Assembly: GCA_964426025.1 (NCBI GenBank)
Contig: CAYRQB010000001.1
Coordinates: 1,151-65,150, forward strand
DNA: 64,000 nt
Reading direction: 5' to 3'
Origin: an uncultured Heliomicrobium sp.
Lineage (GTDB): Bacteria; Acidobacteriota; Blastocatellia; RBC074
Shown here piece by piece: positions 2,498 to 61,335 of this stretch (the first letter of the stretch is position 1; every line of letters begins with the position of its first letter). Below the pieces are notes generated by a model, which was given only the letters and a program-made list of their open reading frames with translations, was not told the DNA's origin and did not search any database. A program made the translations under genes and the position numbers.

Positions 2498-2543
2498 TTC
2501 TAGCACCTGAAACAATTGACGCGGCTAAACCACACAACAGCGT

Positions 2544-7393: not shown

Positions 7394-7472
7394 CATTTTC
7401 CAGCTTTTCATTGCAGGCTTATTCGATGGCCTGAGCAGTTACCCTTTATCAACGAAACAAAGCGAGGGACTC

Positions 7473-31363: not shown

Positions 31364-31378
31364 TTCCAAGGAATGACC

Positions 31379-35451: not shown

Positions 35452-36416
35452 ATGGTAAACATGGCGCAACCAGTAACAACAATTTCTGAACAAGCTGAAA
35501 CGATAGCGCAACGAGGCAGATTGCGCGCGTTGCTGATTTCCATGCGTCCGCATCAATGGACGAAGAATCTGTTCGTTCTGGCTCCGCTGCTGTTCGGTCA
35601 AAAGCTAGGGGATTTGAATGCGGTAGGATTGGCGTTGATGGCTTTCGCAGCTTTTTGTCTGATCTCCAGTTCGCTTTACATCATCAACGATGTTGCAGAC
35701 GCCGAAGCCGACCGAGCGCATCCTGAAAAACGTCTTCGCCCGATTGCTTCCGGCGAGCTTACGGTTTCGTTGTCGTTGCTGTCTGTCATTGTTTTGCTGG
35801 CGATTGCGTTTGGAATCGCGGCTTCCATTGGCTGGCGGTTTATGGCGTTGGCCGGAGCTTATGGAGTTCTGACTCTGGGTTATTCGCTGGCTGTCAAACA
35901 CGTAGTGATTCTGGATTGCATGACCATCGCCACGGGTTTTGTTTTGCGCGTGGTTGGCGGAGCGGTCGCAGTCAGCGTTACGCCGACGCATTGGTTGATC
36001 GCCTGCGCTTTTCTGCTGGCGCTGTATCTGGCCTTTGCCAAAAGGCGGCAGGAGATTCTGTTGCTGGCCGAATCGGCGCGCGAACATCGTCAGGTGCTCG
36101 GCGAATACACGGTCAGTTTTCTCGATCAGGTCAACAACATTCTGGTTGGCGCGACGATAGTTTGTTACACGCTTTACACAGTAGCGCCTGAAACCGTCGC
36201 GCGTTTCGGCACTGACAAACTGATTTACGGAACCATCTTCGTCGTTTACGGAATGTTGCGATACATGATCCTGACTCAGAATTCGGCCAATGGCGGCAAT
36301 CCCAGCAAGGCGTTGATCAGCGACAAACCGTTGTTGTTGGCGATCATCGGCTGGGCGATTTACAACGCTTTGATTATTTATCGCGGCGTAATGGTTTCGT
36401 TGTGGGGGCAGGTGCA

Positions 36417-36420
<4 letters not shown>
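35452..36420 (+). CDS. UbiA-family prenyl-phosphate phosphoribosyltransferase-like (DPPR-synthase-like)
   Basis: IINDVADAEADRAHPEKRLRPIASG is the NDxxDxxxD Mg-binding motif. Multi-TM. Similarity is to decaprenyl-phosphate phosphoribosyltransferase. Confidence 0.8.
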
Positions 36421-38164
<1,744 letters not shown>

Positions 38165-38168
<4 letters not shown>

Positions 38169-41121: not shown

Positions 41122-41219
41122 ATAAACGACGCTGGCAAGCTCGACTGAAATTGCTACACACAATTGACGAATAACCAAAGATCACAATTATGGCCGACAC
41201 TGAAAAAAGGAGAAGTCAT

Positions 41220-43406
41220 ATGTCGAAGTTAGGGTTACTCATAATTGGGTTGGCGATTCTGGTTGCAGTATTTCCAAAGTCGGAGCCTTCTTTGGAACCT
41301 GCCCCCTTGCAACAGGCTCAAATCACGATTGATCCGAACACCAGTTACCAGACGATTGTTGGTTGGGAAGCAGTGGCTCAGGCCGGACAGGTGCTGGAAA
41401 CAAATTCCGTCACCAACAGATCAAACATCAACCCTGCATTCGTCAATTACAAAAATCAGTTGTTCGATCTGGCGGTCAACGATTTGGGGCTGAACAGGTT
41501 TCGTCTGGAAATCAGAGCCGGTTTGGAAAATCCCGTTGATTATTACACCAGGTACATCAACGGCCAGATTTCTTTCGACAATTTCAAAAACCGATGGTAC
41601 GAGATCATCAACGATAATAACGATCCGCAAACGATAAATCCGAGCGGTTTTCAATTCGCCGAACTGGATTTCAACATCGAGAACGTAATCATACCGATTC
41701 GCCAACGGCTGGCGGCCAGAAGCGAAAAGCTTTACCTGAATCTGAACTACGTTGATTTCACCGCCTCGGCCTTCGAGCATAAAAACTTTCCGGAAGAATA
41801 TGCAGAGTTTATGTTGGCCGCTTTCATTCATATGCGCGACAAATTTGGTTTCACGCCGGACGCGGTGGAAATCATTCTGGAACCCGACACCGGAGCCAAC
41901 TGGAACGCGACGCAAATTGGAAACTGTTTGGCCGCCGCCGGAAATCGTTTGCGAGCGAACGGATTCAATCCGGATTTCGTCGCTCCGTCCTGCACCAACA
42001 TGTTCAATTCGTTGGCATACTTCGATCAATTGATACAGGTTCCCGGCGTCACTCAATTCATTTCAGAAGTTTCCTACCATCGTTACGCGGGAGCGACCGA
42101 CGATGCGTTGCGAGGATTTGCCAGTCGCGGCGCTCAATACAAGATTGACACTTCTCATCTGGAATTGATCGGAGCGACACAAAACGATCTTCATTCTGAT
42201 TTGACGCTGGCGAACAATTCTTCGTGGCAACAATTTGCGCTGGCGTTTCCGTTGGGAGGCAGCGACGACGGCAGCGCTTATTACGATGTCAACGACAGCA
42301 ACCCGGCCAATCCGACGCTGACGATGGGAAGCCGCGCGAAGATACTCAGGCAATATTTCCGATTCATCCGGGCTGGCGCTTTGCGAATCAAAGCCACAAC
42401 CACTTCCGATGTGTTCGACCCGGCGGTTTTCGTCAACACCGATGGCAAGTTCGTTGTCGTAGTGAAAGCTATTGCCGGTGGAAACATCACGCTGCAAGGG
42501 TTGCCAGCCGGAACTTATGGAATCAAATACACCACGCCCAGCCAATACGACGTTGACGCAACGGACGCGACAATCAGCGCCGGGCAATCGTTGAATGCTT
42601 CCATCCCGCGCGACGGCGTGATTACGATTTACGGCAAAACTTTGCCGAGCGTGGTGTCGGTTGATGCCGCCAGTTATGTTCGCGCCAGTTCGCCCGGACA
42701 GATCGAAGCCGCTTTCGGCTCAGGTTTTCCAGCGCAAACAAACGTCGCTGTGTCGGCCAGTTCAACTCCGCTGCCAACCAAATTGTCGAATGTCTCATTG
42801 AAAGTGAACGGCGTTCTCGCTCCGTTGTTTTTTGTCGGCGTCGGAGGCGGTCAAGGCGCAGGAGCTTTTCAAATCAATTATCAGGTTCCGTATCAAACCA
42901 AACCCGGTTTGGCGAGAATTGAAGCGCTGAATAACGATGTGCCGGTTTCAACCGGATACCTGATCGTCGGCGAAGTGGCTCCCGGGGTTTTCACAATTTC
43001 GGCGACGGGCAAAGGGCAGGCTGTGGCAATCAATCAGGATTTTTCGCTCAATGGCGATTCGGCGCAAAACCCGCGCGCGAAGCCGGAAGAGCGCGGGCGT
43101 GTCATAACCTTCTTCGCCAACGGTCCCGGCGGACAATTTACAAATCCGGCCAACGGCCAGTCTCTAACTCCGGTTTCCGGCGAACCCACGCCCGCCAATC
43201 CGTTCTATGCGACTCAAACCGCTCCGATCGTCACCGTCGGCGGCGTGCCTGCGACAGTTACTTTCAGCGGATTGACGCCTGGCTTTGTCGGATTGTGGCA
43301 ATTGAACGTGGTCATTCCGCCAACCGCGCCGGTCGGCAATGCGGTTCCAGTCGTCATCAAATTGAATCGGCGAACGACCAATCTGACCAACATCGCAGTG
43401 ATTTGA
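41220..43406 (+). CDS. Secreted clan GH-A-like glycoside hydrolase with two C-terminal TIGR03437-type soil-associated domains
   Basis: The ATG at 41220 has an AAGGAG 6 nt upstream and encodes a signal peptide. ILEPDTG is a GH-A NEP-like acid/base motif. The C-terminal repeats are IEAAFGSGF...VNGVLAPLFFV...QINYQVPY and TVGGVPATVTFSGLTPGFVGLWQLNVVIP. Confidence 0.65.
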   Translation: MSKLGLLIIGLAILVAVFPKSEPSLEPAPLQQAQITIDPNTSYQTIVGWEAVAQAGQVLETNSVTNRSNINPAFVNYKNQLFDLAVNDLGLNRFRLEIRAGLENPVDYYTRYINGQISFDNFKNRWYEIINDNNDPQTINPSGFQFAELDFNIENVIIPIRQRLAARSEKLYLNLNYVDFTASAFEHKNFPEEYAEFMLAAFIHMRDKFGFTPDAVEIILEPDTGANWNATQIGNCLAAAGNRLRANGFNPDFVAPSCTNMFNSLAYFDQLIQVPGVTQFISEVSYHRYAGATDDALRGFASRGAQYKIDTSHLELIGATQNDLHSDLTLANNSSWQQFALAFPLGGSDDGSAYYDVNDSNPANPTLTMGSRAKILRQYFRFIRAGALRIKATTTSDVFDPAVFVNTDGKFVVVVKAIAGGNITLQGLPAGTYGIKYTTPSQYDVDATDATISAGQSLNASIPRDGVITIYGKTLPSVVSVDAASYVRASSPGQIEAAFGSGFPAQTNVAVSASSTPLPTKLSNVSLKVNGVLAPLFFVGVGGGQGAGAFQINYQVPYQTKPGLARIEALNNDVPVSTGYLIVGEVAPGVFTISATGKGQAVAINQDFSLNGDSAQNPRAKPEERGRVITFFANGPGGQFTNPANGQSLTPVSGEPTPANPFYATQTAPIVTVGGVPATVTFSGLTPGFVGLWQLNVVIPPTAPVGNAVPVVIKLNRRTTNLTNIAVI

Positions 43407-44419
43407 TGGAAACAGGAACGCGGGCATCCCTGCCCGCAAAAATCGAAGCGCGAAGCATCCTGGTTTTCGGCTCATCAGGTTTCATAGGCCGCTGGGTTTC
43501 CCGGCGGCTTTGCGGTCAGGGCACAAAGCCTTTTCTGGTCGTGCGCGATGAGAAAGCGGCAGAGCGAGTTTTCGCCGATTACGAAATCGAGGGCGAGGTT
43601 ATCCGGGCGGATTTGCGTCGGCTGGATTCCGTTGCCGAGATCATAGGTAAGATCAAACCTGACGTGGTTTTCAATCTGGCCGGTTACGGCGTTGATCGTT
43701 CAGAACGCGACGAAGCGATGGCTTATCGAATCAACGCCGAATTGGTTGAAACAATCTGCAAAGCGATGGCGGCGAATCGAAATTCAAACTGGCCGGGTCA
43801 ACAAATTGTTCACGTAGGTTCTGCGTTGGAGTACGGCGAAATCGGCGGCAATCTGGCTGAAGATTCGTCGGTCAATCCGACCACGCTTTACGGCAAATCA
43901 AAACTGATGGGGACGAACTTGTTGACCAGATGTTGCCGTGAATTCGGCATCAGTGGAATCACGGCTCGTTTGTTTACTGTCTATGGCGCTGGCGAACACG
44001 ACGGACGATTGTTGCCTTCGTTGCTGAAAGCCGCAACCGACGGCCAGCCGTTGCAATTGACGGCGGGCGAACAAAAACGGGACTTCACCTATGTCGAAGA
44101 CGTCGCCGAAGGTTTGCTTCGTTTGGCTGCATGTAAATCGCAGGCCGGAGAGATCGTCAATCTGGCGACCGGACGATTGACTGCGGTTCGCGGCTTCATC
44201 GAGACGGCGGCTTCGATTCTGAACATCCCCGAAAACAAATTGCAGTTCGGCGCGATTCCAACCCGCGCCGAAGAAATGCAGCACGACCCGGTGACGGTTG
44301 ATCGTTTGCGGGGGCTGATTGATTGGACGCCGCCGACTGACATCGCCGAAGGAATTCAACAAACAGTAAAGCAGGCGAGACGCCTGATTTACCAGGAGGC
44401 AGTATGCGCATCTTCTTAG
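43406..44419 (+). CDS. NAD(P)-dependent epimerase/reductase (SDR, NDP-sugar modifying)
   Basis: The ATG overlaps the upstream TGA (TGATG). Motifs are ILVFGSSGFIGRWV and YGKSK (the YxxxK). Confidence 0.8.
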   Translation: METGTRASLPAKIEARSILVFGSSGFIGRWVSRRLCGQGTKPFLVVRDEKAAERVFADYEIEGEVIRADLRRLDSVAEIIGKIKPDVVFNLAGYGVDRSERDEAMAYRINAELVETICKAMAANRNSNWPGQQIVHVGSALEYGEIGGNLAEDSSVNPTTLYGKSKLMGTNLLTRCCREFGISGITARLFTVYGAGEHDGRLLPSLLKAATDGQPLQLTAGEQKRDFTYVEDVAEGLLRLAACKSQAGEIVNLATGRLTAVRGFIETAASILNIPENKLQFGAIPTRAEEMQHDPVTVDRLRGLIDWTPPTDIAEGIQQTVKQARRLIYQEAVCASS

Positions 44420-46449
44420 CCGATCTTGGCCATAATCAACTGACTTACAGTTCGGATGTTTATCCGCTGGGTGTAGCCAATCTGGCGACTTACGTTCGCG
44501 AATACCTCGATCCGCGCTATCCGTTGGAGATCAAAATTTTCCGCGAGCCTGAAGACTTGAAAGCTGCGCTGGACGACGGTTCGCCGGATGTGTTGGCGCT
44601 CAGCAGTTATTCGTGGAATCACAACCTGGCGCTGCACTTTGCCGATTACGCGAAAGCTGGCAATTCACAAGTCTTGACGCTGATGGGCGGGCCGAACTTT
44701 CCGCTGACGGCTGCCGAACAGGAAAGCTTTTTGCGCGGAATGTCGCAGATAGACATTGCTGTTCGCGGCCCGACTTACGAAGGCGAGCGCGCATTTCTGA
44801 ACATCATTCGCCGCCTTGCCGAAGTCGGTTGTCAGCGCGAAGGTGTGTTTGAAGAATCGGTTCCGGGCAATATGTGGATTCATCCGCGCACTGGCGAATT
44901 CGTCGTTGGCGGAGAGGTCGAACGCATTCGCGATCTGGATGAAATTCCTTCGCCTTATCTGTCGGGATTGATGGACGATTATTTCAAGACAGGATATTTC
45001 CCGATGATGCAGATTGCGCGCGGCTGTCCGTTCAGTTGCACCTATTGCAATTCCAGCGTTGACGCCAACAGCAAGATTTACGCGCATTCGGTTGAAAACG
45101 TGAAGGCCGATTTGTTGTACATCGCCGAACGCATCCGGCCAGAGGTCACGTTATGCTTTGCCGACGACAACTTTGGAATGTATCAGCGCGACGAAGAAGT
45201 CGCCGATTACATCAGCTACTTGCAGGAGCATTACAACTGGCCGCAGTACTTGCGCACTACGACCGGCAAAAATCGCGGCGAGCGAATCATCAAAGTCATG
45301 CGAAAGGTCAAAGGCCGTTTGCCGATGACCGCGGCGGTACAATCGCTGAATCCCACGGTTCTGAAAAACATCAAACGGGCGAACATCAGTCTGGATACAT
45401 TCGCGGACATTCAGAAAGAAGTCATCGCACAGGGAATGCAATCTTACGGCGAACTGATTCTGAGCATGCCGGGCGAAACCAAAGCTTCGTTTATGAACGC
45501 CGTTCGCGATTTGCTGGAAGCCGGAGTCAAACGAATCTCCGCGCATCAATTGATGCTGTTGCACGGCGCTCCGCTCAGCAATCCCGAAAGCCGCGAACTG
45601 TTCCAATTCAAAACCCGGTTTCGCGTCGTCGCTCGCAACATCGGCGATTACACCGGAACGCCGGTCATCGAAACCGAAGAGATGGTGGTCGAAACGCCTG
45701 ACTTCAGTTTCGAGGAATATCTGGAAGCGCGAGTCTTTCATCTGCTGCTGACGATCTTTTATTACGAAGGCAATTTTGAAGAGCCGTTCGAATACGCGCA
45801 TCAGGAAGGCATCAAGGCTTTCGACGTGATGGTGCGAATGCAGCAAATGCTTGACGAAGCGCCGCCCGCATTCCGGGCGATGATTGACGATTTCCTGCAA
45901 GAAAGTCAGGAAGAGCTTTTCCAGACCAGAGAAGCCTGCGTCGAATGGGCGAAGCAGAATTTCGTCGCGCTGGTTGACGGCAGTTTGGGCGGCAATTTGC
46001 TGAGCAAGTATTCGATGATCGGACGGTTTTATCTGACTCAGGAAGCGATTGAGTTTCTGGAAACGACGATTTCCGCAATGCTTGATGAAGCCGAGCTTCG
46101 ATCGGAACCGGCGGCGCTTCACGCGACGACGGATTATCTTCGCTGCATTTTGCTTCACGTTCCGTTCGCTGAAAACCTGTCGGCCAATCCTGAATGGACG
46201 ACTTCTTACGATGTCGAAGCCTGGCATCGAGACGGTTACGCGAACCATCTGGAAAAATACGATCTGGGTCGTCCGATGACATTCGCCACGAAAGTCGAGG
46301 CCGACAAACGAGCCTTGATCGAAAGCCGTGTCGCCACTTTTGGCGAACATCCATCCGGACTGGGAAAATTCACTAGAACCATGTTTGCGCAGGATTTGCG
46401 CCGCACCACTGTTCGCGGTGAAAGCGCAACGGCAGGAACCGGAGATTGA
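44404..46449 (+). CDS. B12-binding-domain radical SAM protein (class B radical SAM, methyltransferase-like)
   Basis: A GGAGG RBS precedes it. The N-terminal ~150 aa are B12-binding-like. ARGCPFSCTYC is a Cx3Cx2C motif. The length is 681 aa. Confidence 0.8.
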   Translation: MRIFLADLGHNQLTYSSDVYPLGVANLATYVREYLDPRYPLEIKIFREPEDLKAALDDGSPDVLALSSYSWNHNLALHFADYAKAGNSQVLTLMGGPNFPLTAAEQESFLRGMSQIDIAVRGPTYEGERAFLNIIRRLAEVGCQREGVFEESVPGNMWIHPRTGEFVVGGEVERIRDLDEIPSPYLSGLMDDYFKTGYFPMMQIARGCPFSCTYCNSSVDANSKIYAHSVENVKADLLYIAERIRPEVTLCFADDNFGMYQRDEEVADYISYLQEHYNWPQYLRTTTGKNRGERIIKVMRKVKGRLPMTAAVQSLNPTVLKNIKRANISLDTFADIQKEVIAQGMQSYGELILSMPGETKASFMNAVRDLLEAGVKRISAHQLMLLHGAPLSNPESRELFQFKTRFRVVARNIGDYTGTPVIETEEMVVETPDFSFEEYLEARVFHLLLTIFYYEGNFEEPFEYAHQEGIKAFDVMVRMQQMLDEAPPAFRAMIDDFLQESQEELFQTREACVEWAKQNFVALVDGSLGGNLLSKYSMIGRFYLTQEAIEFLETTISAMLDEAELRSEPAALHATTDYLRCILLHVPFAENLSANPEWTTSYDVEAWHRDGYANHLEKYDLGRPMTFATKVEADKRALIESRVATFGEHPSGLGKFTRTMFAQDLRRTTVRGESATAGTGD

Positions 46450-47430: not shown

Positions 47431-48702
47431 ATGCTTATGGTGAATCCGAAAATGTCAACACGACCTGTTTATCATCGAAGAGAAACCTGCAGAGCCTGCG
47501 GCGAAAAAAGTCTCAGGCTCTTTTTGCCATTGGGTTCGCAACCGCTGGCTAATTCGTTTTTGAAATCGCCGGACGAATTTGCGAACGAACTTTTTTTCCC
47601 GCTGGACACGCATTTCTGTGAAAGCTGTTCGCTGGTTCAAATTCCCGACGTGGTTGACCCCGAAGTTTTGTTTCGTCATTACCTGTATGTGACCGGAACT
47701 TCCGAAACCATCGCCCGGCACAATCGCGATTACGCCAGAGCGGTGACCGAAATGCAGCATCTGGCCGCCGACGATCTGGTGATTGAAGTCGCCAGCAATG
47801 ACGGCAGTCTGTTGAGATGTTTTCAGGAATTGGGAGTGAAAACTTTGGGCGTTGATCCGGCGACGAACGTGGCGGCGATTGCACGCGCAAACGGAGTTGA
47901 AACGATCAATGAGTTTTTCAGTCACGACAGCGCACGAAAGATTCGCGGCGATTACGGCGCGGCCAAAGCCGTCATCGGCAACAACGTTCTGGCTCACGTT
48001 GACGACACACAGGATTTTTTGCGCGGTTGCAAAACTGTCATTGGCCCGGACGGGTTGGTCATCATCGAAATGCCTTATCTGGGCGATCTGCTCAATCGCA
48101 CGGAATACGACACGATTTACCACGAACATCTTTGTTACTTTTCGGTCAATTCGCTGATGCGGTTGTGCGAATCCGCAGGTTTGCGAATTGTGCGGATGGA
48201 TCACGTGCCGATTCACGGCGGCTCGCTCAGAATGCATGCCGGTCACGCCGAAGTTCATCAAGACCATTCGGCGCAAGTGATGGCTTGGGCTGAAGAAGAA
48301 AAGAGCAAAGGCTTCACCAGCTTTGAGCGATATGAACAATTGGCCAGAAGCGTCGAACGCAGTCGCGAAACGCTGCTCGATTTGTTGAACCGTTTGAAGT
48401 CCGAAGGTAAAACCGTCGCCGGTTACGGAGCGGCGGCAAAAGGCAATACGCTGTTGAATTATTGCCGGATCACGACCGATTTGATGCCTTACGTGGTGGA
48501 CAAAAACCCATTGAAATTGGGATTGTTCACGCCGGGCATGCACATTCCGGTTTTGCCGGTTTCGACCTTGCTGGAACAACAGCCGGATTACCTGCTGATT
48601 CTGGCGTGGAACTTTGCCGAAGAAATCATGCGTCAACAAAGCGAATACAAAGCTCGCGGCGGCAAGTTCATCATCCCGATTCCTGAAGCGACGGTGGTTT
48701 GA
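47431..48702 (+). CDS. NDP-hexose C-methyltransferase (TylCIII/NovU-like; N-terminal zinc-ribbon plus SAM-MTase plus C-MT C-terminal domain)
   Basis: ETCRACGEKSLRLFLPLGSQPLANSF is the putative Zn-binding methyltransferase domain. VIEVASNDGSLLR is the SAM-binding motif. The start could instead be 47437 or 47452. Confidence 0.75.
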   Translation: MLMVNPKMSTRPVYHRRETCRACGEKSLRLFLPLGSQPLANSFLKSPDEFANELFFPLDTHFCESCSLVQIPDVVDPEVLFRHYLYVTGTSETIARHNRDYARAVTEMQHLAADDLVIEVASNDGSLLRCFQELGVKTLGVDPATNVAAIARANGVETINEFFSHDSARKIRGDYGAAKAVIGNNVLAHVDDTQDFLRGCKTVIGPDGLVIIEMPYLGDLLNRTEYDTIYHEHLCYFSVNSLMRLCESAGLRIVRMDHVPIHGGSLRMHAGHAEVHQDHSAQVMAWAEEEKSKGFTSFERYEQLARSVERSRETLLDLLNRLKSEGKTVAGYGAAAKGNTLLNYCRITTDLMPYVVDKNPLKLGLFTPGMHIPVLPVSTLLEQQPDYLLILAWNFAEEIMRQQSEYKARGGKFIIPIPEATVV

Positions 48703-48703
48703 A

Positions 48704-49474
48704 ATGCAAGTTGTAATTTTGGCAGGCGGGCGCGGAACGCGTCTGGCCGAAGAAACCTCGATTCGTCCGAAGCCGATGGTGGAAATCGGCGGCAAGCCCA
48801 TGCTGTGGCACATCATGAACATCTACGCTCACCACGGCTTTAAGGATTTTCTGGTGGCCTGCGGTTACAAAGGTGAAATGATCAAGGAGTATTTCCACAA
48901 CTTCTTCATTCATCATAGCGATTACGTCATTAACCTCAGCGACCGTTCGATGGAAATCATCAACACCAACCGGCTGGATTGGCGCATCGGAGCCATTGAT
49001 ACCGGTTTGGATGCGATGACCGGCGGGCGTGTTTTGGCCTTGAAGCGTTTGATCGGCGAGAAAACTTTTTCGGTGACTTACGGCGACAGTTTGGGCAATG
49101 TTGATGTTCGGGCGCTGGTCGAATTCCATCGTTCGCACAAAAAGCTGGCGACGGTAACGGCGGTCAGGCCTCCGGCGCGATTCGGCGAATTGGTGCTTGA
49201 TGGAGATCGGGTCTGCGAGTTCCGCGAAAAACCCCAAACCGGCGAAGGTTGGATCAACGGCGGTTTTTTCGTTTTCGAACCCGGCGTTTTCGATTATCTG
49301 GCCGACGATCAAACCGTGCTGGAACGCGAACCGTTGGAACGGCTGGCAGCCGATGGGCAATTGATGGTTTTCAGGCACGAAGGATTTTGGCAGCCGATGG
49401 ACACGCTGAGAGAAAAACATTTACTTGAATCTTTGTGGAACGAGGGGAGAGCGCCTTGGAAAGTGTGGGAATGA
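48704..49474 (+). CDS. rfbF: Glucose-1-phosphate cytidylyltransferase
   Basis: [38 protein letters not shown]. The length is 256 aa. The ATG lies 1 nt after the upstream TGA. Confidence 0.9.
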
Positions 49475-50445
49475 ATTTCTGGAATCGCCGCAACGTTTTT
49501 GTGACGGGAGCGACCGGTTTGCTCGGTTCGTGGATGACCGAAGAGTTGTTGCAGCGCGGAGCGAATGTCACTTGCCTGATTCGCGATTGGGTTCCCGAAA
49601 GCCGTCTGGTGAATTCGGGCGCAGTTGCGCGAGTCAACGCCGTGCGCGGTGAATTGGAAGATTACCAGGCGCTGGCGCGGGCGCTGAACGAATACGAGAT
49701 TGATTCGGTTTTTCACCTGGGCGCGCAAACCATTGTCGGCACAGCATTGCGCGCGCCGCTTTCAACCTTTGAAGCGAACATTCGCGGCACGTGGAATTTG
49801 ATGGAAGCCTGCCGCGTCAATCCGAAAGTCGAACGCGTGATTCTGGCTTCCAGCGACAAGGCATACGGCGAGCAGGAGCAATTGCCTTACACCGAAGACG
49901 AGACTCTGAACAGCAAATATCCTTACGACGTTTCAAAATCGTGTTCGGAGTTCATCGCAATGTCGTATTTTCACACTTACCAAACGCCGGTGGCGATCAC
50001 GCGATGCGGCAATCTGTACGGAGGCGGCGATCTGAATTTCAATCGGCTGATTCCCGGAACGATTCGCTCGGCGTTGCGCGACGAAGCTCCGATCATTCGC
50101 AGCGACGGCAAATTCATTCGCGATTACTTTTTCGTCCGCGATGCTGTTGACGCTTATCTGACGCTGGCCGAACGATTGCCGGATCAGAAATTCAACGGCG
50201 AAGCTTTCAACTTCAGCACCGAAACGCCGCTTTCCGTTTTGGAGTTGGTGAATCAAATACTAAAGCTGACCGGCAAGACTCATTTGGTTCCGAAAGTTAT
50301 GAACGAAGCCAGTCGAGAGATTCACAAACAATATTTGAGCTGTGAGAAAGCCAAACGCATGCTCGGTTGGCAATCCAGACACGCGTTGGAAGATGGTCTG
50401 CAAGAAACAATCGGCTGGTACAAAAAGCGTTTGGGCGTGAGTTAA
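49471..50445 (+). CDS. rfbG: CDP-glucose 4,6-dehydratase
   Basis: Motifs are [14 protein letters not shown] and YDVSKSC (the YxxxK). An ATGA overlap couples it to rfbF. Confidence 0.9.
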
Positions 50446-53387: not shown

Positions 53388-54209
53388 ATGAAGCGACAGG
53401 TGCTGATTGCCGACTTAAAAGAGTCGGTCAACAAGAATGTTCGTTTGGTCGCCAATGACGATTCTGTATCACTGGTCAGCGAGCCTGAATTTGAGATCGC
53501 GGGTTATGGGAGTAGGACCAGGCCCATACTCGTAAAGCAGTTTAAGTCATATGATTTACAACTGCTTAAGGAAATTGATGCCGCTCGTGAGGATGAGCGT
53601 CGTCGTCTGTCTCGCGAATTACACGACCAGTTGGGGCAAGACCTGGTTGCATTATCGCTGGGGTTGAGATCGCTGAGAAAATCTGCCGCATACGATTCCA
53701 TCACAGGCAGCCAAATAGACGAATTGCAAGGGCTGGTTGATCAGCTTGGGATGCATGTCCATGAAATTGCTATGACATTGCGTCCGACAATTCTTGATGA
53801 TTTGGGATTGCAAATGGCTTTGACGAGCCTTGCGGAGCAATGGTCGCTGAATACCGGCATTGAAGTGAATTGCCGTATTTCGGGATTGGAAAATCAATAC
53901 ATCCCCAAGCCTGTTGAAACAACGATTTACAGAGTCTCGCAGGAAGCTCTAACAAACGTCTACAAACATGCTAAGGCGGATAACGTAGACCTAACCTTGA
54001 ACCGTGATGGCCGTAACTTAGTAGTGGTTATTTCTGATGATGGGAAGGGAATTGACTTTGAAGCTTTGAACAAAGCATCAGGGCTAAGTCATGGGTTGGG
54101 ACTGACCGGAATGCGCGAGCGAGTAACTCTGGTCAATGGCACGTTGAAGATTAAATCATCTCCAAACAAAGGGACGTCAATAATAATGAACATCCCACTT
54201 TTATCGTGA
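53388..54209 (+). CDS. Cytoplasmic sensor histidine kinase (HisKA_3 family) lacking TM or sensor domains
   Basis: RRRLSRELHDQLGQDL is the H-box. The HATPase_c region is LTGMRERVTLVNGTLKI. The N-terminal region is only about 75 aa. Confidence 0.8.
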   Translation: MKRQVLIADLKESVNKNVRLVANDDSVSLVSEPEFEIAGYGSRTRPILVKQFKSYDLQLLKEIDAAREDERRRLSRELHDQLGQDLVALSLGLRSLRKSAAYDSITGSQIDELQGLVDQLGMHVHEIAMTLRPTILDDLGLQMALTSLAEQWSLNTGIEVNCRISGLENQYIPKPVETTIYRVSQEALTNVYKHAKADNVDLTLNRDGRNLVVVISDDGKGIDFEALNKASGLSHGLGLTGMRERVTLVNGTLKIKSSPNKGTSIIMNIPLLS

Positions 54210-54220
54210 AAAGTACACCG

Positions 54221-54880
54221 ATGACCAAGTTAAGGGTCTTCCTTGTTGATGACCATCCAATTGTTCGCAAAGGGTTAAAGGCTCTAATTGACGAGCAGCT
54301 TGATATGGAAGTTGTTGGTGAAGCAGGTGATGGGCGTGTGGCTTTATTACAGGTAAAAGAGTTGCAGCCGGACGTTATGATTCTCGACCTGACGTTGCCG
54401 GATATGAATGGCATACAGGTCATGGAGCGTGTTAAACAGCTTTGCCCTAAGGTAAATGTTTTGGTGCTGACGATTCATGAAGCCAGCGGCTATCTTCGTC
54501 AGTTATTTCAAACGGGCGCAGCCGGTTATTTGTTAAAGAGAACTGCCGGGGAAGAGTTAACGCATGCTATACGGGTTGTCGCAACCGGCGGCGCTTATCT
54601 TGACCCTACTCTTGCAGGCAAGATGGTAACCACGTTGGTGCATCATTCACCTCAGAAGGGCAAAGACCCCGGCGCCCCCAACAAGCTAAGTGACCGTGAA
54701 AAAGAAGTGTTGCGCTTGATTGCTCTGGGTTACAGCAACAAGGAAATAGCCGCGCAACTTGATTTAAGCGCAAAAACAATCGAAACATATAAAGCTAGGC
54801 TGATTGAAAAACTTGGGTTAAGTAGTCGTTCTGAACTGGTCAGATATGCCTTGAATCAAGGCTGGCTCCAGGATGTTTGA
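54221..54880 (+). CDS. NarL/LuxR-family response regulator
   Basis: VFLVDDHPIVRKGL...VMILDLTLPDMNG is the receiver domain with the phospho-acceptor Asp. The HTH region is LSDREKEVLRLIALGYSNKEIA. The start could instead be the GTG at 54206. Confidence 0.85.
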   Translation: MTKLRVFLVDDHPIVRKGLKALIDEQLDMEVVGEAGDGRVALLQVKELQPDVMILDLTLPDMNGIQVMERVKQLCPKVNVLVLTIHEASGYLRQLFQTGAAGYLLKRTAGEELTHAIRVVATGGAYLDPTLAGKMVTTLVHHSPQKGKDPGAPNKLSDREKEVLRLIALGYSNKEIAAQLDLSAKTIETYKARLIEKLGLSSRSELVRYALNQGWLQDV

Positions 54881-54906
54881 TTTGAAAGTTGGCTTGGTTT
54901 TGCCAT

Positions 54907-54966
54907 GTCAGGAAAAACCCTTACTGAGGGGGATTTTCTGACTGTCGGCTCTTTTTTTTCCGACAG
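54907..54966 (+). terminator. Two adjacent stem-loops downstream of the response regulator gene
   Basis: The first is GTCAGGAAAAACCC..GGGGGATTTTCTGAC. The second is CTGTCGGctcttttttttCCGACAG. The T-run lies inside the loop rather than 3' of the stem. Confidence 0.35.
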
Positions 54967-55446
54967 ACAAGTTCGTTAATAAATGAGAGATTATGCTTAG
55001 GTGCCAGGAGACTTTTTTTGCTCCTCCTACAGCGGCTCAGCTCAGGGGGTAGTGACAAGATGTCAATTAGTTATGATCTGGTTATTTGGATGATCAGGTC
55101 TTGTCGCAAACCAGTAGGAAAGCGTGCGTTTCCGAATTGATTTTCGGTGTGTTCGCTATGGCTAAAAGTTTTAGGGAATGTCCGGGTCTCTAACCAATAA
55201 CATTAGGCCAGTTACAATCTTAAACAATACCGAATAACCCTTGGCTCCATCGCGAAGATGGACAACGACGGTCCCCATATAGTCCGAACGAGTTGCCCCA
55301 CATCGGAAGCTCAGAATTCGAACTCTTCTTATTATTACTTAGTAATTCAAGTGTGCATCTTGTAAGAGGTTTATGAATTCGTTCAATTTGCCCCATCGCA
55401 AATAATTTTAGTTTGCTTGTTACACTTTTGAGTTAGGAGGCGAATC

Positions 55447-56163
55447 TTGAGAACAGCAGTTATATCCCCCACGCAGAAACCAGTACGTGTATTGTTGATT
55501 CAAAATCAGGAATGCGTTCGATTTGGTTTGCGTTTGTTGATTGAAAGTAAGCCCGAAGTTGAAGTGATAGGTGAAGCTTCGACATATGCGCAGGCTCTCG
55601 CAGTCATTGAAAGTCAGCCGGATGTTATCCTGCTTGATCATGAACATGGCGGAGATTGCGATATTGATGCTATCCCGAATTTGCTTGCGGCGGCAAAAGG
55701 CGCGCGCGTGCTGGTGTTCACGGGTGAATGGAACCCTGAAGCCCATTACAGAGCATTCGGGCTTGGAGCAATGGGGCTGGTGTTCAAAACCGATTCCCCG
55801 GAAGTGTTAATCAAGGCGATTGAGAAAGTCCACGCTGGCGAAGCCTGGATTGAAAGCGTTACTATGGCCCGTCTTCTCAGAGAGATGTGGCAGGGTAAGG
55901 TCAAAGCTGGAGAAAATCACCATCCCACCCCGGCAAAACGTAACCTAACAAAACTGACTCAGCGAGAGCGAGAAGTCGTTGCTTTAATCGGAGAGCGATT
56001 GCAAAACAAACAGATTGCCGATCGCTTGTTCGTCTGTGAAGCAACTGTTCGCCATCATCTAACGTCAATTTACGACAAACTAAATGTAAAAAACCGCTTT
56101 GATTTGGCGCTCTACGCCTATCAACACGGCCTGGCCAAGCAACCATTGCTTGGCGCAGAGTAA
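55447..56163 (+). CDS. Atypical LuxR-family response-regulator-like protein (receiver lacking the acidic pair)
   Basis: TTG start 6 nt after an AGGAGG. VRVLLIQNQECVRFGL occupies the usual LLVDDH position with N-Q-E. An Asp is retained in VILLDHEHGGD. The C-terminal LuxR HTH is LTQREREVVALIGERLQNKQIADRL. Confidence 0.75.
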   Translation: MRTAVISPTQKPVRVLLIQNQECVRFGLRLLIESKPEVEVIGEASTYAQALAVIESQPDVILLDHEHGGDCDIDAIPNLLAAAKGARVLVFTGEWNPEAHYRAFGLGAMGLVFKTDSPEVLIKAIEKVHAGEAWIESVTMARLLREMWQGKVKAGENHHPTPAKRNLTKLTQREREVVALIGERLQNKQIADRLFVCEATVRHHLTSIYDKLNVKNRFDLALYAYQHGLAKQPLLGAE

Positions 56164-56447: not shown

Positions 56448-58055
56448 ATGGGAAATTTTAGGCCAAGAAATCCTTTTGAATATTTGCGGATTCTGTGGCG
56501 GCGTAAATTGCTTATTATTTTATTCGCCGCTGCAATGTTGATCGCAACATATATTGCAATGGCTCCCGTTCCCAACGTTTATGAAGCGAAAGCCCTGATT
56601 GCCATCGCGCTGCAATCCAGCGACGAGAGAAATGCGGTTGATGTACAAGTCGCGATGGTGAATCAGTACTTGCTGAGCCGATCGAATCTGGAACCGCTGA
56701 TCAATCGGTACGGTCTCTATAACATAAATTCCAGCGCTAATTCGACTGCCAACAGGGATGCGAGGATCGAATCTGCCCTGCAACAGTTACGCAAGGATAT
56801 AGTGCTGGAAACCAAGCTTCGCGATTATTATCCGCAGTTTCCCGAATCTTTTACCATTACTTATCGTCATACAGACCCAGTAATTACACAAAAAGTAACA
56901 AATGACCTGGCTTCGTTCTTTAACAATACGAATGAAATGATGGAAAAACAGTCCATTGAAGAAGCCAAGTCATTGGATACGACCATAAGCGAAATTGAAA
57001 ACCGGATTAAGCAGATAAACCAGGAGCGTTCGGCAAGTCAGTCGTCGGGGAATGTGAATGCTATACGAATGCAGCGGGGCACGCTAAGCGCCACCATTGA
57101 TACCCTTAGTGACAAGGAGTTTGCGCTTACACAACAAATTGCTGAGCAGAAGCGCCTGGTTGCCGAACAGGAGAAAATAGCAAAAGTAACGCCGACAACC
57201 GACACAGCGCGTGGTAGCAGCTCTTACGGAGTGTTACTTGTGCGCAAAGCTCAGTTGGAAGCACAGCTTAAAGATTATCTGGCTCAATACACCGAGAAGA
57301 ATTCAAAAGTTGTTCAAACGCGCTATGAAATTGCTGAGGTAAATCGGCAGCTTACTGCGCTTGATTCCGGGGGAACTCAGAATGGCGCTGCCCCAATTTC
57401 GAATGAAGTCCGCGAATTGCGCGCGCTTCAGCGTGAACAGGCCCGGCTGGAAATAGATTTGGAAGTAACACAAAGAGAGCTTTCCAGGAAGCGAGCGGCC
57501 TTGGCGGTTCTGCCGGATGTAGGCGGCGCGCCGATCGGAGCTATGCCAAATGGAAGTAACCCAACCGGGCTTCCTTCTGAAAGTTTCAAAGACCTTGAGC
57601 TTAACAGGGAATACGGCCTGTTATTCAATCGTTACACTGCCCTGACAGAAAGACGAGATTCGTTGCGGCGCGGAAGTTCCGCGAACAACGGCATTGACGC
57701 CGCACTATTCAGAGTGGTTGATCGTGCCAGCGTCCCTCAGTTCCCGGTTGCGCCGAATCGTTTGAAGATGATGTTGATTGCATTCGCAATGTCATTGGTT
57801 ATTGGTTTGGCAGTTGCCGTAGCAGTTGAGATTCCGCAAATGACCCTTATTCACGATGACCGCGACGTTCAGTATTACCTTGGCGCTCCGGTTATTGCTT
57901 TGATCCCTGAAACACTGACGCCTGCCGAAAGCGGGCGTAAGCGGCGATTGTTTATGATGCGAGCACTTGGGATTTTGTTACTTGCAGCATCGCTAGTGCC
58001 TGTATTCACCATTCTGCTGAAAAAACTGCAAGTATTTCAAATGCTTGCCAAGTGA
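56448..58055 (+). CDS. Polysaccharide co-polymerase (Wzz/GumC/EpsA-like PCP, transmembrane modulator)
   Basis: An AGAGGA RBS precedes it. TM1 is LIILFAAAMLIATYIAMAP, followed by a long coiled-coil periplasmic region and a second TM (LIAFAMSLVIGLAVAVAV). There is no C-terminal Tyr cluster. Confidence 0.8.
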   Translation: MGNFRPRNPFEYLRILWRRKLLIILFAAAMLIATYIAMAPVPNVYEAKALIAIALQSSDERNAVDVQVAMVNQYLLSRSNLEPLINRYGLYNINSSANSTANRDARIESALQQLRKDIVLETKLRDYYPQFPESFTITYRHTDPVITQKVTNDLASFFNNTNEMMEKQSIEEAKSLDTTISEIENRIKQINQERSASQSSGNVNAIRMQRGTLSATIDTLSDKEFALTQQIAEQKRLVAEQEKIAKVTPTTDTARGSSSYGVLLVRKAQLEAQLKDYLAQYTEKNSKVVQTRYEIAEVNRQLTALDSGGTQNGAAPISNEVRELRALQREQARLEIDLEVTQRELSRKRAALAVLPDVGGAPIGAMPNGSNPTGLPSESFKDLELNREYGLLFNRYTALTERRDSLRRGSSANNGIDAALFRVVDRASVPQFPVAPNRLKMMLIAFAMSLVIGLAVAVAVEIPQMTLIHDDRDVQYYLGAPVIALIPETLTPAESGRKRRLFMMRALGILLLAASLVPVFTILLKKLQVFQMLAK

Positions 58056-58086: not shown

Positions 58087-58974
58087 ATGGATAAGATGTT
58101 CGAAGTGCTGACAAACAGGAGCACTGAGACCAGAAGTAACGAGCCACGTCGCACCAAACCGTTTCGTGATGAGCCAGATGGTTCAGAGGAGTCAGCGAAA
58201 AGTCAGGCGCTGGAAAAGCTTGACTTCAAATATTACACGATGACCGCACCGGGGACTTCAAAACTTGAAGGGCGAGATTCTGCCTCTCTGTCACCGCACC
58301 GCAGGTCGCTGGCGCAACCCGCGCGCGAAGTGGCGCTGAACCTTTATCACGTCGCGCCCAATCTGGTAACTCTCCACGACCAGGACCTAAGGGCATCGGA
58401 ACAATACGACGTACTCGCTTTGAGATTGATCTCAGCGACTACCGTGCGAATGTTCAAACGTTTGTTAATAACTTCAGCTCAAAAAGGCGAAGGTAGAACG
58501 AGCGTGTTACTTAATCTGGCCGGCGCGTTATCGCGTGCCGGAAAACGTGTTTTGGTTATAGATACGGATCTGTTCAGACCATCGGTCATCCGGTTGTTGG
58601 GCATCGAAACCGAAATCGGACTTGCGGAAGCATTCGGGCGCGATCTGCCGCCGGGCATGGCTGTGATGAGGGTGTTACCTTACGGATTCCATGTTTTGCC
58701 GACGCGAGAAAGAGTTGATAACGCCGTTGAAGTACTCACTTCTCACGCTTTCAGGGAGATGTTGGAGATACTTGAGCCTGATTATGATTTCATCCTTTTC
58801 GATTCTCCGCCATTGTTGGAAAGAGCCGATTCGGGGATGTTGATTAAGCTGGCCGACACGGCATTGATGGTTATACGTCAGGGGGCAACGAAAGCATCGC
58901 AGATGGCGAAGGCCATTGAGTTACTGGCCGAAGAAGATATTTTCGGAGTGGTGCTTAATCGCGTCAATCCTTAA
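58087..58974 (+). CDS. BY-kinase/CapB-like P-loop ATPase domain protein, degenerate (Walker A Lys replaced by Arg, no Tyr tail)
   Basis: AGGAG lies 7 nt upstream. The Walker A region reads LLITSAQKGEGRTS, where the aga codon gives GEG-R-T instead of GEG-K-S/T. Walker A' is VLVIDTDLFRPS. Walker B is FILFDSPPLL. There are no Tyr residues in the last 40 aa. Confidence 0.75.
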   Translation: MDKMFEVLTNRSTETRSNEPRRTKPFRDEPDGSEESAKSQALEKLDFKYYTMTAPGTSKLEGRDSASLSPHRRSLAQPAREVALNLYHVAPNLVTLHDQDLRASEQYDVLALRLISATTVRMFKRLLITSAQKGEGRTSVLLNLAGALSRAGKRVLVIDTDLFRPSVIRLLGIETEIGLAEAFGRDLPPGMAVMRVLPYGFHVLPTRERVDNAVEVLTSHAFREMLEILEPDYDFILFDSPPLLERADSGMLIKLADTALMVIRQGATKASQMAKAIELLAEEDIFGVVLNRVNP

Positions 58975-59090: not shown

Positions 59091-60473
59091 ATGTTACTGA
59101 GAAGTCGCTCAAGGACTATAAGTCTGTTGATCTTTGAAGGTGTGTTGATATACCTGTGTGGTGTGGCGGCAATCTATCTCAGGTTGGCTGCGGAAGCAGA
59201 GGAGGTACTTTTCAGTAAGCAGGGCTGGCTGAAAATTCTGCTTATATCGGCGATTGTTCAAGGGTTGTTTTACCTGTTCGACCTTTATGATTTTCAGATG
59301 ATTCGCCAACGCACGCTGCTTTACATAAGGATATTGCAGGCTCTTGGGTTAAGTGCGATTACGCTGGCGCTGATTTTTTACCTGGTGCCGCAGGTGATGA
59401 TAGGCCGTGGCGTTTTTTCCGTAAGCTTGTTGCTTATGTTATCCGTCATGTCAGGGTGGCGAACTTTGGCAATGTGGTTATTGGGGCATCCTGGTCTGAC
59501 TGAGCGGGTATTGATTCTTGGCACCGGTGAAAATGCCGTGGAGTTGGCGAAAGAAGTACTTGACCACAGGGAAAAAGGTTATTCGGTTGTTGGTTTTGTT
59601 GGCGACGATCCGCAATTGGTCGGGCAGAGCTTAATCAATCCCTGCGTGATTGGTGTTACTACCGACCTTGAAGAGTTAGCCAGACGTTACCATGCCGACA
59701 GGATTGTAGTAGCTTTCGACGATCGTCGAGGCCAATTGCCGGTTGACACGTTATTGAAACTGAGGCTTGGAACGGAGGTCTTGGTTGAAGATTCGGCTAC
59801 GTTTTATGAAAAGCTGACCAGGAAGATCAATATTGGAACATTACGCCCAAGCGGTTTGATCTTTTCAACCAATTCGTGGTGGATGCCTTTTTATAAGAGG
59901 CCTCGCAAGGTAGCCGATTTTGTTTTGGCTTTGATCGGTTTGTTACTGGCTTCGCCGATAATGCTGATAACCGCAATTGCCATCAAACTGGATTCGGTCG
60001 GCCCCGTTTTTTACGTGCAGGAACGGGTTGGATTGCATAACCGAATATTCAGAATCATCAAGTTTCGGTCAATGTTCATCAACGCCGAAGAAGGCGGGCC
60101 TGCCTGGGCCGGAGAAGCAGACCCGCGTATCAGCAGAGTTGGACGCATTATCCGCAAACTGCGGATTGACGAGTTGCCGCAATTTATCAATGTGCTGCGC
60201 GGAGAAATGAGCCTGATCGGGCCGCGTCCCGAACGCGCAGTTTTCGTCGAATTGTTTGAACGCGATATTCCGTACTACTCGCAACGGCATTTAGTTAAAC
60301 CCGGTCTTACAGGTTGGGCGCAGGTTCGTTACCCATACGGAGCGTCTTTCGAAGATGCCGTTGAGAAACTGCAGTACGACCTTTATTACATCAAAAATCA
60401 GTCGCCTTTGCTGGATGCAATCATCCTGTTTGAAACCGCCAGAATTGTTTTCTTCGGCAGGTTTGCCCGCTGA
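59091..60473 (+). CDS. Polyprenyl-phosphate glycosyl-1-phosphate transferase (WbaP/EpsL/ExoY-type priming transferase)
   Basis: IIKFRSMFINAEEGGPAW and DELPQFINVLRGEMSLIGPRPER are classic bacterial sugar-transferase motifs. About five N-terminal TM segments are present. Confidence 0.9.
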   Translation: MLLRSRSRTISLLIFEGVLIYLCGVAAIYLRLAAEAEEVLFSKQGWLKILLISAIVQGLFYLFDLYDFQMIRQRTLLYIRILQALGLSAITLALIFYLVPQVMIGRGVFSVSLLLMLSVMSGWRTLAMWLLGHPGLTERVLILGTGENAVELAKEVLDHREKGYSVVGFVGDDPQLVGQSLINPCVIGVTTDLEELARRYHADRIVVAFDDRRGQLPVDTLLKLRLGTEVLVEDSATFYEKLTRKINIGTLRPSGLIFSTNSWWMPFYKRPRKVADFVLALIGLLLASPIMLITAIAIKLDSVGPVFYVQERVGLHNRIFRIIKFRSMFINAEEGGPAWAGEADPRISRVGRIIRKLRIDELPQFINVLRGEMSLIGPRPERAVFVELFERDIPYYSQRHLVKPGLTGWAQVRYPYGASFEDAVEKLQYDLYYIKNQSPLLDAIILFETARIVFFGRFAR

Positions 60474-60543
60474 TCGGAACATAAACGCGCGGTGATTACG
60501 AGGAATATGCAGCCGGTAAGTTGGCGACTAGCAGGTGCAAGAG

Positions 60544-61335
60544 ATGATTACAAGGAACAGCTCTAGAGCAATTTTAAGGAGTCTTTTCCTGTTGGCAGGA
60601 CTCGTTGTTTATGTCTGCTTTCCGGTGAATGTCGGTGTGGAAGCGCTGGCTCAATCTGTGGCCGCAAATACGGAAACCGAAAAGCCGCAACCGGCAAAAG
60701 GCGGATCGAACGTCGAATCCGGCGAAGCGATGTTTCAATCAATTTACCGGAATTTTTATGACACTTACCGGTTGGGACCGGGTGACATAGTGGCGGTTCG
60801 TGTTTACGGTCAACCGGATTATGCATTGCCCCAAGCGAAGGTTTCGCCTGTCGGGCGTATCTATCATCCTTTGGTCGGAGAAGTTGAAGTTGCCGGATTC
60901 ACCGTCGGTCAGTTGGAAAAGAGATTGACGGAAGATTTCAGCGAATACGTCAGGGATCCCAAAGTAACTGTTTCGCTGGAAGAAGCTCAAAGCGCCAAAA
61001 TCGGCGTTTTGGGAGAGATCAAATCGCCCGGAATTGTTGTTATGGCCAGGCCGATGACCGTGCTTGAAGCGATCTCCGACAGAGGCGGTTTCAGCGATAC
61101 AGCCAAACGAAATCCGGTAACAGTATTGCGCCGATTAGCCGATGGACGGATGCAGACGATCAAGGTTGATGTTAAACGCATTATGGAAGGCAAAGCCGAT
61201 CCTGAAGAAAACCTGATGATGCGTGCAGGCGATACCGTGATTGTGGACAGCAACCTAAGAAAGAAAATGACTTCGGTGATGTCAGTCGCCGGGTTTGCTC
61301 AATTTTTAACGTTCATTGCCTTCGGGCGCGGATAA
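60544..61335 (+). CDS. wza: Periplasmic polysaccharide export protein (Wza/OPX family)
   Basis: YRLGPGDIVAVRVYGQPD is the Poly_export motif. A signal peptide and an SLBB-like region are present. The ATG at 60544 follows AGGTG; the track ORF starts at the GTG at 60535. Confidence 0.85.
   Translation: MITRNSSRAILRSLFLLAGLVVYVCFPVNVGVEALAQSVAANTETEKPQPAKGGSNVESGEAMFQSIYRNFYDTYRLGPGDIVAVRVYGQPDYALPQAKVSPVGRIYHPLVGEVEVAGFTVGQLEKRLTEDFSEYVRDPKVTVSLEEAQSAKIGVLGEIKSPGIVVMARPMTVLEAISDRGGFSDTAKRNPVTVLRRLADGRMQTIKVDVKRIMEGKADPEENLMMRAGDTVIVDSNLRKKMTSVMSVAGFAQFLTFIAFGRG

Follow-up and report, generated by a model that had tools for sequence, protein, structure and literature searches.

The 64-kb window analysed here (64,000 nucleotides of contig CAYRQB010000001.1, assembly GCA_964426025.1, placed by GTDB in the Blastocatellia, Acidobacteriota) encodes, within a large exopolysaccharide (EPS) cluster, a 295-residue protein with the fold of the bacterial tyrosine kinases (BY-kinases, BYKs), in which the lysine of the ATP-binding P-loop is replaced by an arginine, Arg137. 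This replacement was found to characterise a whole clade of related proteins, which have jointly lost the residues specific to tyrosine phosphorylation while the remainder of the nucleotide pocket has been kept. With a probability of roughly 0.6, we read the protein as a non-phosphorylating partner of a polysaccharide co-polymerase (PCP) that would still bind ATP, with nucleotide occupancy or a very slow turnover acting as the switch.

An arginine P-loop fixed in one clade

The gene begins with an ATG at 58087, preceded by AGGAG 8 nt upstream. A longer version starting from a TTG at 58045 would share nucleotides with the stop codon of the gene before it, and the ATG is the likely start because the homologs are 288–297 residues long and begin at the equivalent methionine. 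Translation in frame from this ATG confirmed what the sequence-only reading of the window had stated, namely that the Walker A segment reads TSAQKGEGRTS, with arginine at the place of the P-loop lysine. HMMER alignments likewise placed Arg137 opposite the lysine of the BY-kinase P-loop (GxGK[ST]) in BceF (6z0p, 6e-18), VpsO (6u1q), CapB (4jlv and 2ved), Etk (3cio) and Wzc (3la6).

The distribution of this arginine among orthologs, a check that had been proposed together with the initial observation, was assessed at three levels. Among the query and its best 120 homologs (43–90% identity), drawn from a search of 5.8 billion proteins, arginine occupied the aligned position in 121 of 121 sequences, within the motif G-[ED]-G-R-T. 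An exhaustive phmmer scan over 1.84 billion cluster representatives displayed a step in the scores: approximately 50 representatives of clusters at 50% identity, all above about 135 bits, carry arginine, and below the step the motif reads GEGK[ST]. Finally, among the 80 loci listed from GTDB species genomes, arginine was present in all 44 arginine-type loci with a readable motif, nearly all of them in metagenome-assembled genomes (MAGs) of Blastocatellia (Acidobacteriota). Lysine was seen neither in the 121 homologs nor at the 44 readable loci.

All six arginine codons were in use at the 44 readable loci, CGC being the commonest, followed by CGG, CGT, CGA, AGA and AGG. Long-term selection for arginine is indicated, because codon families turn over at a residue that is itself invariant. 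The arginine had been described as a single-nucleotide step from AAA or AAG to AGA, which fits the codon found in the window, but the substitution proved to be ancient and not recent. That AGA differs from AAA by one nucleotide could also mean that the base was misread, that the mutation is private to the strain or that the gene is a decaying pseudogene. The probability of such an artefact is negligible, and it was ruled out by the recurrence of arginine in the homologs, in the approximately 50 cluster representatives and at the readable genome loci, which come from independent assemblies and use six codons, as well as by a reading frame that is unbroken and strongly conserved from end to end.

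In a neighbour-joining tree of the core domain, the arginine proteins formed one bipartition (41 of 131 leaves, bootstrap 186/200), and we take the arginine type to have a single origin. Two sequences, P0147, which is nested in the arginine clade, and P0160, a short relative, read GSGKT yet lack both the tyrosine tail and the ring motif, and look like secondary reversions. An unrelated tandem-domain protein of 876 residues (P0213) carries one GEGRST and one GEGKTT domain, and its arginine is an independent lysine-to-arginine event.

What was lost with the lysine and what was retained

The structure of the protein was predicted with AlphaFold2 from a 91-sequence alignment (mean predicted local distance difference test score, pLDDT, 81.8), with residues 1–66 disordered and residues from about 70 to 293 scoring above 90. 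A Foldseek search of this model against the PDB returned, as top matches, BY-kinase catalytic domains throughout: that of Wzc (3la6, E 1.6e-15), CapA/B chimeras, VpsO, BceF and Etk. Of the features by which BYKdb/isBYK defines a BY-kinase, the catalytic-domain fold and Walker B (phi4-DxxP) were present, and four of the six sequence features were missing, namely Walker A (GEGRT in its place), the arginine of Walker A', the tyrosine cluster and the ExxRxxR motif. In BY-kinases, Walker A reads Gx5GK[ST], with the 'GK' 100% conserved in 796 BYKs (PMC4007543), and the Walker A' consensus is phi4-DxDxR (PMC4007543, PMC9800525).

The losses are shared across the clade. Both arginines of the ExxRxxR oligomerisation motif (O-motif), which forms the ring interface, are absent from helix alpha2 throughout, the consensus at this position being (E)xYxxLA. 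At the arginine position of Walker A' DxDxR, F, L, H, Q, V or R is found. The sequence-only reading had described Walker A' and Walker B as intact; this holds for Walker B and for the DxD of Walker A', but not for the final arginine of the latter, where the window protein has Phe163. The tails mostly extend 0–15 residues past the core LNR and contain no tyrosine cluster, and the few exceptions in length are truncated or frameshifted fragments, likewise without tyrosine. The lysine-type tails, in contrast, usually comprise 15–65 residues with 3–13 tyrosines, and the relatives just under the score step combine ExxRxLRT, GEGK[ST] and DxDLRR with tails of 20–65 residues containing 3–8 tyrosines (e.g. 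YYDYYYNY).

The remainder of the pocket is strongly conserved within the arginine clade. S130, G136 and R137 never vary, T138 is kept in 118 of 121 sequences, and N143, D159/D161, P165, D239, S240, G266 and N291 are also strongly conserved. The residues specific to phosphotransfer and ring formation have been selectively lost and those for nucleotide binding retained. The nucleotide pocket is under strong purifying selection, as would be expected of a scaffold or regulator that binds nucleotide.

Family models drew the same protein close to the BY-kinases and yet outside them. The window protein scored 86.6 bits against TIGR01007 ('polysaccharide biosynthesis tyrosine autokinase') and two other arginine-type proteins scored 88.8 and 93.0 bits, all under the cutoff of 108.05, whereas lysine-type paralogs, including those from the same MAGs, scored 133–150 bits. 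The best-scoring model was TIGR03018 (XrtA-associated tyrosine autokinase), with 110.6 bits against a cutoff of 230.65, which neither the arginine nor the lysine type reached. Scans of the approximately 45 open reading frames (ORFs) of the window with NCBIfam and Pfam revealed no exosortase that would indicate an XrtA/PEP-CTERM association; the only protein of the window passing an XrtA-linked model (TIGR03013) was the priming glycosylphosphotransferase discussed below. With four sequence features missing and a score under the curated threshold, the window protein should not be classed as a tyrosine kinase. Public records name the relatives 'CpsD/CapB family tyrosine-protein kinase', an annotation that is probably wrong for the arginine-type proteins.

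Membership in other P-loop families was considered and rejected. Models for MinD/ParA gave 38–47 bits against cutoffs of 180–213, and, as regards their signature lysine (KGGxxGK[ST]), K133 is wrongly spaced and not conserved (H in 62 sequences, K in 25, others in the rest). The 'KGGVGR-motif variant AAA ATPase' family NF047398 matched over the P-loop region only (residues 127–172), with 37.1 bits where 90 are required, and BcsQ (TIGR03371) with 30.7 bits against 157.85.

The partner PCP and the export module

The gene directly upstream encodes a PCP of the PCP-2-like type with no kinase or P-loop domain, and downstream follow genes for a priming polyprenyl-phosphate glycosylphosphotransferase (PGT) and a Wza-like outer-membrane polysaccharide export (OPX) protein (Table 1). 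The window as a whole is a large Wzx/Wzy-type EPS cluster with many glycosyltransferases, nucleotide-sugar enzymes, an asparagine-synthase-like amidotransferase and radical S-adenosylmethionine (SAM) enzymes. A PCP gene lies directly 5' of the ATPase gene in almost all arginine-type loci and a PGT gene directly 3' in many of them. The order PCP, ATPase, OPX is kept across 43–72% identity, usually with the PGT between ATPase and OPX.

The earlier claim that neither the ATPase nor the PCP ends in a tyrosine-rich tail was borne out: only VNP follows the core of the ATPase, and no tyrosine occurs in the last 40 residues of the window PCP. A tyrosine cluster on a partner protein, which had been named as a possible objection, was looked for on the PCP and was absent both in the window and in three distant loci. 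The partner PCPs instead share a short cytoplasmic tail after the second transmembrane (TM) helix (LLKKLQVFQMLAK, LLNYLRIIQIFANRW, LLGHLKIFQALAIRW, LLKKVQIFQLLAK), with at most one tyrosine in the last 40 residues.

A cognate phosphatase was also sought. No low-molecular-weight protein tyrosine phosphatase (LMW-PTP) or PHP-type phosphotyrosine phosphatase was found among the approximately 45 ORFs of the window, and no phosphatase within 10 kb on either side of three homologous loci. The HAD hydrolase at 24129–24779 was rejected as a candidate phosphotyrosine phosphatase, being of the sugar-phosphatase type. Nor does the 64-kb window contain a second kinase-like gene, as the query matched only itself in tblastn.

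Directly 5' of the PCP gene, at 53388–56163, lie genes for a HisKA_3 histidine kinase and two LuxR-type response regulators; the receiver domain of the second regulator scores weakly (39.8 bits). In a 67%-identical locus (L003, 5994–8327) the PCP is preceded by these three genes as well, and the trio may be a dedicated regulator of the export module. Five of the homologous loci (L004, L007, L016, L019 and L043; 46–72% identical, same gene order) come from public MAG records labelled Heliomicrobium sp., Heliobacteriaceae or Clostridia, and these taxonomic labels are probably wrong.

Table 1. Positions in the window of the arginine P-loop protein, its motifs and the associated export genes
Feature	Position	Strand	Remarks
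Wzx-like flippase	32572-33843		
PCP, PCP-2-like	56448..58055	+	Wzz + GNVR; two TM helices; no kinase or P-loop domain
Cytoplasmic tail of the PCP, LLKKLQVFQMLAK	58014-58052	+	Short, conserved, no Tyr
Arg-P-loop BY-kinase-like protein, 295 aa	58087..58974	+	aa 1-66 predicted disordered; about 70-293 with BYK catalytic-domain fold
N-terminal motif LDFKYYTM	58219..58242	+	Clade consensus FDFxxYSL; in disordered region; conserved; candidate docking motif; Y50 is Phe in 15/121
Helix alpha2 segment EQYDVLA	58399..58419	+	Position of the BY-kinase ExxRxxR motif; both Arg missing clade-wide; Y107 is Y in 115, F in 6
Variant Walker A, TSAQKGEGRTS	58471..58503	+	Codons act tca gct caa aaa ggc gaa ggt aga acg agc; Arg137 = AGA, 58495-58497
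Walker A'-like VLVIDTDLFR	58549..58578	+	VLVIDTD = aa 155-161; D159 in 116/121, D161 in 121/121; Phe163 at the Arg position of consensus DxDxR
Walker B, FILFDSPP	58789..58812	+	aa 235-242; D239 in 120/121, S240 in 119/121
C-terminus, VNP then stop	58963..58974	+	3 residues past core LNR / last core strand; protein ends ...GVVLNRVNP; no Tyr cluster
PGT, Bac_transf	59091..60473	+	TIGR03013, 439.7 bits, cutoff 393
OPX / Wza-like periplasmic export protein	60535..61335	+	Poly_export + SLBB

Phosphorylation or nucleotide occupancy

In the current model of BY-kinases, an octameric ring forms via the O-motif, the tyrosine tail enters the active site of the neighbouring subunit, and the ring comes apart on phosphorylation and is reset by a phosphatase (PMC9800525, PMC12004946). 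The arginine clade lacks every element specific to this cycle, and it is quite likely, going by these joint losses, that its members do not autophosphorylate on tyrosine. The sequence-only reading of the protein as a nucleotide-binding scaffold or regulator rather than an active tyrosine kinase is supported, namely by the absence of lysine among the orthologs and of a tyrosine cluster on the PCP, the joint loss of motifs, the TIGR01007 scores below cutoff, the lack of a phosphatase in the window and the conserved pocket.

An enzyme that is still active, with Arg137 functionally replacing the lysine, is an unlikely alternative. Such a protein could be a tyrosine kinase acting in trans, on tyrosines of the adjacent PGT, of the PCP or on Y50 or Y107 of a neighbouring subunit, or an ATPase whose hydrolysis drives cycling of the PCP. 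The Mg-ATP pocket is invariant apart from the lysine, including the DxD of Walker A' and the Asp of Walker B, the PGT gene is closely linked in many loci, and Y50, Y107 and Y233 are conserved. Moreover, known BY-kinases have intrinsic ATPase activity, and the kinase activity of Acinetobacter baumannii Wzc K547Q is listed as 'not affected' despite the Walker A substitution (PMC9800525, Table 3). The P-loop change alone is therefore no proof of inactivity, and the argument rests instead on the correlated losses. Of the seven residues reported to be 100% conserved among 796 BY-kinases (PMC4007543), two are removed by the replacement of the lysine together with loss of the DxDxR arginine. The trans-phosphorylating ring requires the ExxRxxR motif, which is absent, and no phosphatase is found in the locus. 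Y50, Y107 and Y233 are the only columns with tyrosine in at least 50% of the sequences, and each is Phe or His in some members, which speaks against an essential phospho-acceptor and makes them improbable as alternative sites.

Wzc K540M abolished both ATPase activity and EPS production (PMC9800525). A Walker A change from lysine to arginine typically leaves nucleotide binding in place and removes hydrolysis, and RecA K70R, for example, kept ATP binding and lost ATPase activity (PMC9769622).

In the explanation we favour, the stand-alone BY-kinase-fold protein and the upstream kinase-less PCP would together constitute a bipartite, phosphorylation-independent PCP-2, serving Wzx/Wzy-dependent polymerisation and export of the exopolysaccharide. 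ATP binding would be retained, because the rest of the Mg-nucleotide pocket (G136, T138, D159/D161, D239 and S240) stays invariant, and with arginine in place of lysine, ATP would probably be held with little or no turnover. The conformation of the PCP's cytoplasmic base, or its state of association, would then depend on nucleotide occupancy in place of a kinase/phosphatase cycle, and would in turn govern polymerisation and the hand-over to the OPX protein. We infer that docking to the PCP could take place via the conserved short PCP tail, the FDFxxYSL motif of the disordered N-terminus, or both.

Several points weigh against this explanation, the K547Q result cited above among them. ATP binding, the lack of hydrolysis and the lack of kinase activity in the clade have all been deduced from sequence. 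An arginine can still contact the beta and gamma phosphates, and some activity may remain. The strong conservation of DxD would also fit retained phosphotransfer, since a part in recognising the substrate tyrosine and in driving the reaction has been proposed for its second Asp. Finally, the search for a phosphatase was confined to the 64-kb window and 10 kb on either side of three homologous loci.

The opposite possibility is a purely structural scaffold that binds no nucleotide, like EcpK of Myxococcus xanthus, in which case the pocket residues would be kept for fold stability or PCP binding only. EcpK functions without any Walker motif (PMC12004946), and loss of the lysine could be a first step towards degeneration. 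We regard this as improbable, though less so than an artefact or a role as kinase modulator (see below), as approximately 50 representatives, down to about 43% identity, keep G136, R137, T138, D161, D239 and S240 essentially invariant, and the arginine has been held through synonymous turnover of six codons, unlike a relaxed site.

Canonical paralogs in the same lineage

The Blastocatellia also encode canonical kinases (L046 and L048–L058), with GEGKTS and tails such as GYYDYYYNY, each beside PCP-, PGT- and OPX-like genes of its own. These lysine-type paralogs are among the nearest lysine-bearing relatives of the arginine type (approximately 35–39% identity) and share with it the phylum, the composition of the module and, in two cases, the MAG. 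They differ in possessing GEGKTS, ExxR/KxxR, DxDLRR and tyrosine tails, and in scoring above the TIGR01007 cutoff.

Among the loci listed, both types were found in at least two MAGs, JADJLO01 (arginine type L038, lysine type L046) and JANPFS01 (L032 and L055, respectively), while at least four MAGs contained two arginine-type loci each (L013/L042, L017/L047, L014/L015 and L034/L040). Wherever a MAG carries two modules, a separate PCP goes with each, and in many cases a separate PGT and OPX as well.

The coexistence of both module types in the same MAG raises the question of whether the arginine protein modulates a canonical BY-kinase, as a pseudo-enzyme pairing with the lysine-type, tyrosine-tailed paralog or as its substrate or decoy. 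Eukaryotic pseudokinases do act by such pairing, but here the probability appears very low. Each type has PCP, PGT and OPX genes of its own, the arginine type has neither the ring-interface motif nor a tyrosine tail to be phosphorylated, and several MAGs have two arginine-type loci and no lysine-type locus among the 80 loci listed. In M. xanthus, furthermore, EcpK function is independent of bona fide BYKs (PMC12004946).

Comparison with known systems

BY pseudokinases were defined by Blocher et al. 2025, who described EcpK and HfsB and added sequence-based candidates from Cuthbertson et al. (PMC12004946). EcpK (MXAN_7447 of M. xanthus) and HfsB (Caulobacter crescentus) partner the kinase-less PCP-2 proteins EpsV and HfsA, respectively, and serve as scaffolds acting on the C-termini of these PCP-2 proteins (PMC12004946). 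The window protein resembles them in being a stand-alone cytoplasmic BYK fold with a catalytic residue missing and no tyrosine cluster, encoded in a Wzx/Wzy EPS cluster beside a PCP-2 protein devoid of a kinase domain, with a proposed phosphorylation-independent support of the PCP. It thereby shows all the traits of the operational definition of a BY pseudokinase: the BYK fold, missing catalytic residues and tyrosine tail, stand-alone architecture, a kinase-less PCP-2 and a Wzx/Wzy cluster.

The likeness does not extend to the active site. According to its description, EcpK has none of Walker A, A' and B and terminates in a basic helix (PMC12004946). In the arginine clade, Walker B, the DxD of Walker A' and a full P-loop are present, with the lysine alone exchanged for an invariant arginine. 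Nucleotide binding is thus probably retained in the arginine clade. A further difference is that elements resembling alpha1 and beta1 (helix 70–76 and strand 80–83, preceding alpha2 in the model) lie in the ATPase itself, and that the PCP tail comprises only about 11–13 residues.

The best matches in sequence and structure were the bipartite PCP-2b BY-kinases CapB/CapA and CpsD/CpsC, together with TIGR01007 and TIGR03018, which share the split architecture and the PCP, PGT and OPX partners. The arginine clade differs from CapB/CpsD in having GR rather than GK, in lacking the DxDxR arginine, ExxRxxR and the tyrosine cluster, in scoring under both curated cutoffs and in having no cognate phosphatase nearby.

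P-loops of the MinD/ParA class with arginine, or without the lysine, exist naturally in the NF047398 family and BcsQ. BcsQ, with its altered Walker A, binds ATP stably and acts as a scaffold in polysaccharide secretion. The arginine clade belongs to a different subfamily and lacks the conserved signature lysine. In the literature we found no natural Walker A lysine-to-arginine variant in ParA/MinD, and no report on the arginine clade or on acidobacterial BY pseudokinases; Cuthbertson 2009 lay outside this search, and an earlier passing mention there is possible. The concept of a BY pseudokinase paired with a PCP-2 protein has already been published (PMC12004946), and what is added here is a clade with an arginine P-loop and an otherwise preserved pocket.

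Other features of the window

The cluster contains a UbiA-type gene resembling those for decaprenyl-phosphate phosphoribosyltransferases (35452–36420; NF008977, 252 bits, cutoff 234), accompanied by genes for two GT-C/PMT_2 membrane glycosyltransferases, a GT87 enzyme and a CofD-like protein (18322–20649, 20662–21990, 21994–24132 and 36402–38168). By analogy, this UbiA/GT-C toolkit resembles the mycobacterial, arabinan-type use of lipid-linked pentose donors and would be unusual for an acidobacterial EPS locus. A radical SAM/SPASM protein (31355–32533) and a B12-binding, KedN5-like radical SAM methyltransferase (44404–46449) are also encoded inside the polysaccharide cluster, and the radical SAM genes are adjoined by a C-methyltransferase gene (47431–48702) and CDP-glucose pathway genes (48614–50445). 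Together these genes suggest heavily modified, C-methylated deoxysugars.

In a 738-residue protein (41190–43406), the only recognisable part was TIGR03437, the 'Solibacter uncharacterized C-terminal domain' (142.9 bits), and its N-terminal 490 residues had no match in Pfam or NCBIfam. Elsewhere, three tandem AhpC/TSA-redoxin paralogs of 194, 223 and 237 residues lie on the minus strand (1192–3257), and a 1525-residue protein (7362–11939) combines HEAT repeats with a stretch similar to the squalene-hopene cyclase C-terminal domain.

Implications for the control of polysaccharide export

BY-kinases are thought to govern the assembly of capsules and EPS through cycles of tyrosine phosphorylation in which the PCP-2 octamer is put together and taken apart. 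EcpK and HfsB, in which the whole active site has been lost, say little about what replaces this cycle. The arginine clade comprises approximately 50 clusters at 50% identity, is often present in several copies per genome and sometimes sits beside canonical kinases. It constitutes a large natural experiment on the question of whether PCP-2 function can be driven by nucleotide binding alone. A tentative proposal, which we hold with less conviction than the reading of the protein as an ATP-binding, non-phosphorylating PCP partner, is that the clade could represent a natural 'ATP-locked' derivative of the BY-kinases and thereby a third mechanistic state, between the active BY-kinases and the motif-less EcpK and HfsB. 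If this is true, Arg137 would have been selected specifically to hold ATP without phosphate transfer, and a switch based on nucleotide binding or slow hydrolysis would replace the phosphorylation cycle in controlling PCP-2 oligomerisation. The ATP status of the cell would then be tied directly to the polymerisation and export of exopolysaccharide in the Blastocatellia.

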